Below, in pieces: positions 1,520 to 3,322 of a stretch of DNA of 38,175 nt (within the stretch, counting starts at the first letter, position 1; each line of letters opens with the position of its first letter). Source of the DNA: Aulosira sp. ZfuVER01 (lineage in GTDB: Bacteria; Cyanobacteriota; Cyanobacteriia; Cyanobacteriales; Nostocaceae). The stretch covers positions 1 through 38,175 of the forward strand of contig JAVRCV020000077.1 of NCBI GenBank assembly GCA_034530615.2, given 5' to 3'. The notes below the pieces were generated by a model that saw only the letters and a list, made by a program, of their open reading frames with translations, searched no databases and was not told where the DNA came from. A program made the translations under genes and the position numbers.

Positions 1520-1608
1520 TGGGCATGGGGCATAGGGGATAGGGCATTGGTTATTTCCCCTTATCCCCTTTGTCTCCCTTGTCCTTCTTGTCTTCCTCAT
1601 CCCCTCAT
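1520..1608. repeat. STRR-type short tandem repeats (gggcat(g/a)g and ccc(t)tgtct-like)
   Basis: gggcatggggcataggggatagggcattgg followed by tccccttatcccctttgtctcccttgtcc, lying between convergent genes. Confidence 0.75.
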
Positions 1609-1994
1609 TCACTCATAGCTCTAGCACAGGCTTGTGCTTCTTGCCAAATTTTATGCAAGAAGAACTCAGTGCGATCGCTCATTTTTGTAACGAACACACC
1701 AATAGCCTCCTCTGAACCATCAGAAAGCCAAGAACCCCGGAGAGTTACTTCTAGATATTCGGTATCACAGGTAGACAGTGCCATGATTTCACTGTCATTG
1801 CATATTACCTCAGCCTTGAGCTTTTCTACTCCTGGTAAATCAACAGGAAGCAAAAAGGAAGCAGTGCTGGGTTCAACACAAATAGATTGACCGACTCGTA
1901 GTGCCAAAATTACGCGCTGTGCTACCCATTCCTCCAGCGATAGGCTCAGGCACTCTAAGTAAAAGCTCCTTTCGGTATAAGTTAGTTTCAGCAT
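1605..1994 (-). CDS. alr0857-family hypothetical protein
   Basis: Starts MLKLTYTERSFYLECL and contains RVILALRVGQSICVEPSTASFLLP. It lies directly downstream of the HNH gene. Start is set at ATG 1994. Confidence 0.8.
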   Translation of the reverse strand: MLKLTYTERSFYLECLSLSLEEWVAQRVILALRVGQSICVEPSTASFLLPVDLPGVEKLKAEVICNDSEIMALSTCDTEYLEVTLRGSWLSDGSEEAIGVFVTKMSDRTEFFLHKIWQEAQACARAMSE

Positions 1995-2010: not shown

Positions 2011-2529
2011 TTATTCCAGGTTTGCTTGCACATTTATCCAGAACTGTTCGGCAAAAGAAATCGCCGGATGGACTGGTGCTTTGGGTTTGGTACGCAGTTG
2101 CATACCAGCTTCAAAAGGGGTGCGATTCCCTTTATAGGAGTTACATCTTTCACAAGCTATGACTACGTTATTCCATGCATGAGGACCGCCTTGCGATCGC
2201 GGAATTACATGATCTAGTGTTAGAGATTTTTTACTACCGCAATATTGGCAACTGTGATGATCTCGCCGCAACACTTCTCGCCGATTCACTGGCGGAACTT
2301 TCCAAGTCCTTTCGCCAGAAGCAATTTTCAAACGAATGTGTTTTGGTACATCAAGTATCAAGCTAGGGGAATGGATTTTCCATCCAACTTCTGTAGACAA
2401 ACCTAATGGTTCAGCTTTGTTTGTTACTAACAGTACAATTGCTCGCTTGATATTGACCCGACACAGTGGCAAGTAATTTTGAGAAAATACCACTACGGAT
2501 TGCTCTAACACTTGCATTGCGATCGTCAC
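2011..2529 (-). CDS. HNH endonuclease (McrA-like)
   Basis: Motif RRDHHSCQYCG...LTLDHVIPRSQGG..WNNVVIACERCN..KGNRTP. AAGGAG precedes GTG 2529; ATG 2517 is an alternative start. Confidence 0.93.
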   Translation of the reverse strand: MTIAMQVLEQSVVVFSQNYLPLCRVNIKRAIVLLVTNKAEPLGLSTEVGWKIHSPSLILDVPKHIRLKIASGERTWKVPPVNRREVLRRDHHSCQYCGSKKSLTLDHVIPRSQGGPHAWNNVVIACERCNSYKGNRTPFEAGMQLRTKPKAPVHPAISFAEQFWINVQANLE

Positions 2530-2545
2530 AGCTTGACTCCTTATT

Positions 2546-2582
2546 AAAAAACCCCCGCTTCTTTTTTAGCTGAAGCGGGGGT
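2546..2582 (-). terminator. Intrinsic terminator inside the 5' leader of the HNH operon
   Basis: Minus strand ACCCCCGCTTC-agctaaaaaa-GAAGCGGGGGT-TTTTT is an 11-bp stem with a U-tract, ending just before the HNH RBS. Confidence 0.85.
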
Positions 2583-2674
2583 GGGAAATTGACCTCAAAG
2601 TTTTCTGGTCTATATCGGTACAGTATGACTCTGCCTGTACCTCCCGCTTCTTGCGTCTAGTTGTGGTTTTGCAT

Positions 2675-2707
2675 TCAGCCCAATAATGCTGCGATATCTA
2701 AAATCAT
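2675..2707 (-). other. Putative leader-peptide uORF MILDIAALLG*, followed in frame by MQNHN* (2657-2674)
   Basis: GAGG lies 6 nt before ATG 2707. TGA 2675-2677 is immediately followed by ATG, and TAG is at 2657-2659. Confidence 0.5.
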
Positions 2708-2861
2708 AATTACCCTCTGTGATTTGCCCATGTTTTTGGCCACCATTACCCATAAAAAAATACTCCACTCCCAAAAGTGCTAATTCCCGACTGGCTCGGC
2801 AGTTGGTAGCACATAAAGAAGTAGAGATGGAGTAAATGGATTTCACAGAAAATTTCACCTA

Positions 2862-2908
2862 TTGAACATTCCTTTAAACATACTACACTTGTATTACTAT
2901 CCTGTCCA
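2862..2908. promoter_or_regulatory. Overlapping divergent sigma70-type promoters with a probable TrcR operator ATACTACACTTGTATTAC (2880-2897)
   Basis: Minus strand TGGACA-N17-TAGTAT points toward the HNH operon. Plus strand TTGAAC-N16-TACACT points toward the RHH gene. The repeated (A/G)TA(C/T)TAC half-sites resemble the TrcR motif as I recall it. Confidence 0.65.
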
Positions 2909-2929: not shown

Positions 2930-3265
2930 ATGCATACAATCGCTCGCACGCCAACCACCGACATGGAAGTTACCAGCATCCGTCTAGAGAGAGAACTTAA
3001 AGAGAAACTCAAAGATATAGCTGGCAATCAAGGATATCAAGCCTTAATTCGAGATATCCTCTGGAATTATGTGCAGCAAAAATCCGGTGAGTGGAAACCT
3101 CGATTTTCGCGAACTGATATTCGAGCGAGCATAGCGGCCACAGCTCAACAAGAAGAACGTTGTGTACTTACAGGTCAAGTCATTCAACCACAACAACCGA
3201 TGCTTTTAGGACTCACAAGAAATGGCGATATGGTTCCTCTGAGTATCGAGAGTTTGGCTGGATAA
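2930..3265 (+). CDS. trcR: Ribbon-helix-helix transcriptional repressor, probable TrcR (All0854 ortholog; translational-stress regulator)
   Basis: RHH pattern EVTSIRLERELKEKLKDIA...YQALIRDILWNYV and an AGGAG RBS. Its divergent position to HNH/alr0857-family genes matches the Anabaena arrangement as recalled. Confidence 0.72.
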   Translation: MHTIARTPTTDMEVTSIRLERELKEKLKDIAGNQGYQALIRDILWNYVQQKSGEWKPRFSRTDIRASIAATAQQEERCVLTGQVIQPQQPMLLGLTRNGDMVPLSIESLAG

Positions 3266-3278
3266 ATTTATATTCACT

Positions 3279-3322
3279 TGAATGCAGCCCAGTTTTGCTA
3301 AATGGTAATTGGGCTGCATTCA
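3279..3322. terminator. 13-bp perfect inverted repeat downstream of the RHH gene
   Basis: tgaatgcagccca (3279-3291) / tgggctgcattca (3310-3322). Confidence 0.6.

Follow-up and report, generated by a model that had tools for sequence, protein, structure and literature searches.

A long leader reading frame and a conserved terminator/antiterminator switch suggest ribosome-mediated attenuation of TrcR-regulated HNH nuclease operons in cyanobacteria

Introduction

In attenuators of the trp, his and pheA type, a ribosome that stalls upstream allows an antiterminator to form and transcription to read through; ErmCL, SecM and TnaC represent arrest-peptide leaders; and in E. coli toiL-topAI and mycobacterial whiB7, an open reading frame that lies upstream (uORF) passes a signal of general translation stress on to a stress or toxin gene. 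The bmrB-bmrCD locus of Bacillus subtilis combines a repressor (AbrB), a leader ORF of 53 aa and a terminator/antiterminator, with slow translation favouring read-through, and it answers several ribosome drugs; its terminator is located within the leader ORF, its RNA has three competing stem-loops, and termination increases when translation is lost (PMC4191407; PMC13689557). In cyanobacteria, the TrcR regulon of PCC 7120 (asr0855-alr0856-alr0857 and all8564-trn) has the same genes, gene order, operator box and stress response as the locus described here (PMC10272220; PMC8421152). The main texts of those two papers place control at the promoter only and do not contain the string 'attenuat'; asr0855 is listed there as hypothetical, and an 'orf1' labelled before all8564 in Supplementary Fig. 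9 of PMC8421152 is given no role in the legend text.

The leader analysed here shares with amino-acid attenuators the predicted logic in which an upstream stall favours the antiterminator and read-through (for trp, PMC4191407), but it has no run of control codons, is several times longer and precedes no biosynthetic target. Unlike in bmrB-bmrCD, the terminator comes only after the end of its ORF, the antiterminator strand would be the direct target of the ribosome, the switch is predicted to open when translation is lost, and the targets are an HNH nuclease and an alr0857-family gene in a host cyanobacterium without a rho match. Compared with toiL-topAI and whiB7, to which it is likened by description, its ORF is long and frame-flexible and is duplicated before tRNA arrays. 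The literature searched, including the main texts of PMC10272220, PMC8421152 and PMC12873609, does not describe this leader as an attenuator, although the supplements of PMC12873609, a study of conserved structures in 202 cyanobacteria, may list its hairpins.

Results

Genomic context of the leader

We analysed a stretch of 38,175 nt from Aulosira sp. ZfuVER01 (contig JAVRCV020000077.1; hereafter the window), which is cyanobacterial DNA with HNH and alr0857-family genes on the minus strand and trcR divergent on the plus strand. The gene order around trcR matches all0854 / asr0855-alr0856-alr0857 of PCC 7120 as given in PMC10272220. The genes and promoter elements are as follows.

2930..3265, plus strand: trcR, divergent ORF for an RHH repressor (its place in the gene order makes it the all0854 orthologue; this order and the box agree with PMC10272220)
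2880..2897, no strand assigned: TrcR box, lying over the -10 hexamer of the leader's promoter; its sequence is exactly the reverse complement of the motif footprinted in PMC10272220
2880..2908, minus strand: sigma70-like promoter (-35 at 2908-2903, -10 at 2885-2880)
2011..2529, minus strand: HNH endonuclease gene (alr0856 orthologue; Pfam HNH_5/HNH; start GTG 2529)
1605..1994, minus strand: alr0857-family gene (NF045647, 163.7 bits)

Leader transcription would start near 2872-2874; in PCC 7120, unit TU00539 begins 14 nt upstream of asr0855 (PMC10287535). The trcR product had no Pfam match and no NCBIfam match above the cut-off, and no rho gene scored above the family cut-off in this genome. 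For the alr0857 protein, a confident structure model (pLDDT 90.4) gave no match against PDB at E 0.001; it is WapI-like in language-model features only, which we regard as a lead. The alr0857 gene often sits behind the switch described below with no HNH gene between them.

Elsewhere in the window, an inverted repeat at 3279-3322, directly 3' of trcR, is possibly the trcR terminator, and short imperfect tandem repeats occupy 190-420, near the contig end. Further TrcR-box-like sites occur in the genome at G000:C55:49790-49806 (-), C23:79656-79672 (+), C39:25350-25366 (-) and C68:103202-103218 (-), one of the four lying upstream of an EF-G-like gene and one upstream of an ABC-transporter-like gene (both named by eye).

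A conserved switch precedes the HNH gene

The leader ends in a set of RNA strands that can pair in two mutually exclusive ways.

2643..2650, minus strand: strand A, 5' arm of the antiterminator, within codons 66-68 of the leader ORF
2617..2641, minus strand: hairpin H1, enclosed by the antiterminator (94.5% of cells paired; 4/7 pairs with changes on both sides)
2591..2610, minus strand: hairpin H2, weak (65% of cells paired; -3.3 kcal/mol)
2572..2582, minus strand: strand B, common to the antiterminator (A:B) and the terminator (B:C), from folding and alignment
2546..2561, minus strand: strand C and U tract, 3' arm of the intrinsic terminator (arm 2561-2551, T run 2551-2546)
2541-2537, minus strand: ribosome-binding site (RBS) of the HNH gene, outside the terminator stem

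An intrinsic terminator thus stands before the first regulated gene, opposed by a mutually exclusive antiterminator, and the leader ORF ends 28 bases upstream of the terminator. The terminator hairpin (-21.1 kcal/mol) was 94.8% paired in 70 thinned sequences, with both-side changes at 5/11 pairs. Against shuffles, the terminator region folded with a z of -5.4 and the antiterminator with a z of -4.4, none of 200 shuffles being as stable. With its 10-nt loop, the hairpin escaped a simple terminator scan, which allows 8 nt. An Rfam search gave a best match of 19 bits against a gathering score of 80. Counts from one alignment (A2) were left out, since it was fitted to the model and contains reverse-strand matches.

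On the minus strand, GAAGCGGGAGGT at 2650-2639 includes strand A. The initial annotation of this DNA had proposed an 11-bp antiterminator: its 8-bp core, 2650-2643 : 2579-2572, is the conserved helix, but the 11-bp version carried no covariation above shuffles (375/500 as high), and the terminal GGT assigned to it more likely pairs in H1 (2641-2617), which has both-side changes at 4/7 pairs. The A:B helix was 88.6% paired in the 70 thinned sequences and is conserved more than covarying, and in partial transcripts ending after B its pairing probability exceeded 0.5 in 153/153 cases, a count made without a shuffle control. Across families there is almost no variation in strands A, B and C, which are altered together in leaders L126 and L158; the scant A:B covariation is what a three-way pairing constraint would give. 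The two alternative folds proposed at the outset are stable beyond shuffles, and H1 and the terminator covary, but covariation of A:B itself is scant.

Because the HNH RBS lies outside the B:C stem and the distance from stem to downstream start ranges from 17 to 155 nt, control would be transcriptional rather than translational. A translation attenuator sequestering the Shine-Dalgarno (SD) sequence does not fit the position of the RBS or locus L242, which has no protein gene before its tRNA promoter.

The A/H1 junction (window 2639-2646, minus strand) is a strong SD-like site in 64/73 leaders, scored with an assumed anti-SD, and is stronger than the true RBSs nearby. A start codon behind it was considered and rejected, being found in 26/218 cases. 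Two naturally broken switches were seen: a deletion at L159:1183-1296 removes A, and an insertion at L151:268-378 splits the leader.

A long leader ORF crosses strand A and stops before strand B

Promoter, uORFs, antiterminator, terminator and HNH RBS all lie on the minus strand where the initial annotation had placed them; it missed a long leader ORF in a frame other than that of the short uORFs.

2855..2860, minus strand: SD-like site for the leader ORF, a family-specific feature (in distant leaders the start lacks an SD and is pyrimidine-rich)
2610..2846, minus strand: leader ORF, 78 codons from GTG 2846 to TAG 2610, or 82 when counted from GTG 2858 further upstream; matched to asr0855 as its orthologue on position and length
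2750..2830, minus strand: 5' hairpin inside the leader ORF (-28.5 kcal/mol)
2657..2707, minus strand: uORF1 (MILDIAALLG and stop, 2707-2675) and abutting uORF2 (MQNHN and stop, 2674-2657), in the +1 frame inside the leader ORF

Orthology to asr0855 (252 nt) is based on position and length, not on alignment. We gathered 200 loci around trcR, 184 of them distinct; 27 without a terminator motif were dropped, leaving 157, and 4 more without strand A, leaving 153. In 149 of these 153 orthologous leaders, which are kin and hence not independent counts, strand A is traversed by an ORF of 50 codons or more. All 149 ORFs terminate upstream of strand B, the stop falling 9-42 nt past the start of A and 22-56 nt upstream of B; 143 share one frame, 6 cross A in another, and 17 stop directly after SGRYR. 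The part of the ORF up to A varies from 49 to 185 codons in a set of 75 diverse leaders. GTG 2846 is invariant in 33/33 aligned sequences, and indels of 1 nt and 2 nt occur between the orthologous positions of GTG 2858 and GTG 2846. The +1-frame stop before A comes at a median of 6 codons versus 9 in the +2 frame, again among leaders that are kin, and we do not claim it as a frameshift trap under selection.

Several further traits of the leader were recorded. The leader start often lacks an SD and comes after a pyrimidine tract (window 2844-2853, minus strand, and orthologues), in 34/75 leaders versus 136/3463 genome ORF starts. A long-range helix may sequester the start codon, which was less accessible than in shuffles in 37/60 leaders (median 0.375 versus 0.425). 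The 5' hairpin at 2750-2830, possibly a pause or brake, reached a z below -2 in 38/75 diverse leaders and showed a both-side change at 1/24 consensus pairs.

The initial annotation had taken the tandem short uORFs as the sensor. A ribosome modelled at the uORF2 stop does open the antiterminator, and in the family group of the window the uORF1 ATG is retained in 121/127 leaders, with the stop three codons before the antiterminator in 105/127. Across all leaders the tandem layout is found in 22/153 (17/153 with a slightly wider search window), versus 149/153 for the long ORF; it occurs in 0/26 leaders outside that family group and 0/63 held-out matches, and uORF1 ranges from 1 to 16 codons. The terminator/antiterminator is therefore conserved but the uORF pair is not, and the short uORFs may have a lineage-specific side role.

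The frame is kept but the peptide is poorly constrained

Pairwise dN/dS (NG86; 33 sequences kept from 97 after thinning) was 0.67 for the leader ORF versus 0.04 for trcR and 0.14 for HNH, with values of 0.77-1.07 in the middle of the leader (codons 35-66) and 0.4-0.5 in some segments. Codon positions 1, 2 and 3 vary to a similar extent (0.23, 0.23 and 0.25), and those codons of A and H1 that are invariant lack synonymous variants. Comparison of the sequences indicates that the frame is kept, with changes of frame tolerated, while the peptide is poorly conserved.

Residue runs in the 75 diverse leaders never exceed 4, the longest being at most 3 in 74/75, and an amino-acid attenuator of the trp/his type does not fit, as there is no run of control codons. 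An arrest-peptide leader of the ErmCL/SecM/TnaC type did not fit either, since the nascent peptide at the stall site is not conserved. In the 5839 in-frame codons of the 75 leaders Pro-Pro is found 4 times, versus 86 times in both off frames together; about 13 would be expected from Pro content, and the proteome stands at 1.04 of expectation. Such avoidance would fit a frame that needs smooth translation. Together with stop avoidance and the invariant start, the Pro-Pro depletion is an indirect sign that the leader ORF may be translated in vivo.

The switch is widespread and has a second copy before a tRNA array

A covariance model of the switch, searched in 151 genomes, matched 71 of them across the class, with up to five matches per genome. 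For 65 later-scored matches picked by RNA score alone, which include two from the first leader set, an ORF of at least 45 codons crosses the switch and stops before B in 64; any open antisense frame was present in 31/65. Among metagenome pattern matches, from which 41 with too little upstream DNA had been dropped, the ORF was present in 53/57 with trcR/HNH/alr0857 context versus 2/9 without. As in ribosome-mediated attenuators, the leader ORF thus shares a transcript with the regulated genes (149/153, 64/65 and 53/57 in the three sets). About 90 genomes outside the class yielded 2 weak model matches, and phages one pattern match, without a U tract or context.

The genome carries a second copy of the switch at G000:C32:182323-182430 (60.8 bits; L202:950-1834; L254:8954-11570), where a TrcR-like box and a 72-codon ORF are followed by the switch, then by an HNH paralogue and finally by 28 tRNA genes in an array of the trn L-array type. 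The 72-codon ORF has the same geometry as the 78-codon leader ORF and no real likeness to its peptide. On pCC7120delta, the published all8564 promoter (PMC8421152) is followed by a 72-codon ORF, the same switch (56.5 bits) and all8564; this ORF is absent from the pCC7120delta gene table. Downstream tRNA arrays were present in 18/40 scanned loci, which were chosen as extra or weaker matches. Direct control of the tRNAs by the switch remains a candidate only, because the array has its own promoter. Among 23 TrcR-like boxes listed for the genome, a terminator was found only at the window's box, in a crude scan that missed the known second copy.

The switch is also retained at loci that have lost the HNH gene or carry it truncated (L242:1456-2111; L240:1956-2616; L239:2300-2581), in L242 directly upstream of the tRNA-array promoter. 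At L259:1481-1900 the switch is followed by a further TrcR-like box and an rtcB-looking gene (identified by eye).

Published expression data

The published expression data point both ways. The transcription-unit table of PCC 7120 (PMC10287535) gives asr0855 a 281-nt unit of its own, and none of its units contains alr0856, alr0857 or all8564. The asr0855-only unit fits termination by default, though it ends about 50 nt upstream of the predicted stop point. In unit TU00540 of PCC 7120, the 590-nt 3' UTR of gyrA2-lnt-all0858 runs antisense into the alr0856-alr0857 region.

Chloramphenicol induces asr0855, alr0857 and all8564 (PMC10272220; PMC8421152), which can be explained by TrcR alone. In trcR-deletion data, the values in WT/mutant are 23/215 for asr0855 (252 nt), 97/701 for alr0856 (546 nt) and 47/397 for alr0857 (390 nt), so that each of the three genes goes up 7-9 fold, with no excess of the leader. 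Much RNA therefore passes the terminator without drug, and read-through is at least leaky; undercounting of a short gene, the antisense 3' UTR over alr0856-57 and the translation defect of the mutant may contribute to the missing leader excess. Both asr0855 and all8564 are among the changed genes in the supplements of PMC9938897, a text look-up in those of PMC4734099 gave no match, and a search of RNA runs returned low-share metatranscriptome contigs only, without transcript ends or levels.

Discussion

An attenuator-like element that is real, conserved and duplicated stands before these nuclease operons, and we judge it probable that the leader is a ribosome-mediated transcription attenuator, in which timely passage of a ribosome would lead to termination and slow, stalled or absent ribosomes would lead to read-through into HNH and alr0857. 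The kind of control, ribosome-mediated attenuation, is known; what is unusual is the very long, peptide-indifferent leader. The element likely gauges general translation on top of TrcR repression, with switching between the two states predicted. The initial annotation had already read the leader as an attenuator, and its conserved terminator/antiterminator, likely ribosome control, stacking on TrcR and opening under slow translation are retained here, but the short uORFs are replaced as the sensor.

In the proposed sequence of events, TrcR would repress the promoter, as others have shown in PCC 7120 and as the box suggests here. Once transcription starts, polymerase would make A, H1, H2 and B, and with no ribosome on A, the A:B helix is computed to form before C emerges. 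A ribosome that has passed about 62 codons would enter A and free B, letting B:C form at the U tract in vivo, and the observed stop, 17-56 nt upstream of B, would keep that ribosome from melting the terminator. A would stay free after any failure within the first 60 codons, through a drug, uncharged or cut tRNA, drop-off, frameshift or blocked initiation. The long frame, poor in Pro-Pro, may thus act as a test track for general translation and not for one amino acid or drug, and TrcR and the attenuator would form two locks on a nuclease operon. With the ribosome modelled as 29 unpaired bases, A:B holds without a ribosome or with one at codons 1-61 and yields to B:C at P-site codons 64-73. At equilibrium B:C wins in the model once C is fully out, and the switch must therefore be kinetic: most likely, the ribosome reaches A and frees B while polymerase is still on the U tract. 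When a ribosome is parked at the stop used most often, 33-42 nt after A, the model leaves A uncovered, and A:B still forms; we speculate that A could be kept covered by the next ribosome or through the strong SD-like site where A meets H1.

The uncovered A in the model bears on an alternative that we consider unlikely, in which the A/B/C switch is real but is thrown by a protein, an RNA or a ribosome held on A, or acts oppositely as a brake. The near-invariance of the three strands across families with little covariation, the SD-like site in 64/73 leaders with no conserved start behind it (26/218) and the failure of a ribosome at the usual stop to cover A all speak for such a trigger; yet three-way pairing explains the invariance, the long ORF that crosses A and always stops before B is left unexplained, and a brake is at odds with downstream genes that chloramphenicol induces and does not repress. 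It seems quite unlikely that we are dealing in asr0855 with a small gene of the ordinary sort, whose leaky terminator sets a fixed ratio while TrcR does all the regulation. Its annotation as a hypothetical protein in many genomes and the similar rise of leader and downstream genes in the trcR deletion agree with this, whereas a dN/dS of 0.67, a length of 49-185 codons up to A, changes of frame and unrelated paralogous peptides do not, nor do a strand A conserved without synonymous change and a covarying H1.

A role for the leader peptide itself, as an arrest peptide with the C-terminal pattern SGRxR...P or in trans, is in our estimation very unlikely. SG[RG][YCW]R and a penultimate Pro do recur and dN/dS falls to 0.4-0.5 in some segments, but the SGRxR codons are the A and H1 strands, their Arg codon can become one for Gly, Lys, Glu or Trp through changes at the single unpaired base, SGRYR is followed at once by the stop in 17/149 ORFs, and 6 cross the switch in a different frame. 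We give least credence of all to the pair of short uORFs in the +1 frame as the sensor: the ATG in 121/127 and second stop in 105/127 family members, and the modelled opening of A by a ribosome there, are set against a tandem layout in 17-22/153 leaders, in 0/26 leaders of other families and in 0/63 held-out matches, with a uORF1 of 1 to 16 codons.

Returning to the ribosome-mediated attenuator, we see about an even chance of a broader picture, namely that cyanobacteria carry a mobile, peptide-independent test-track attenuator of 50-185 codons, in which a ribosome races polymerase and which gates an HNH nuclease, alr0857 and a cryptic tRNA-array locus. It may be one case of a cross-phylum design guarding tRNA arrays. 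According to a review, uncoupled transcription may be widespread. Cyanobacteria are reported to be among the groups concerned.

Read as an attenuator, the leader would explain what asr0855 and the ORF preceding all8564 are for, and the TrcR response would gain a second lock, one that senses translation. The question of whether cyanobacterial ribosomes keep up with RNA polymerase would also become testable in a genetic model. A sequence-indifferent leader that reads translation health would be a portable reporter, and, if our reading is true, the test track would be a natural reporter of transcription-translation coupling in bacteria without a rho match.
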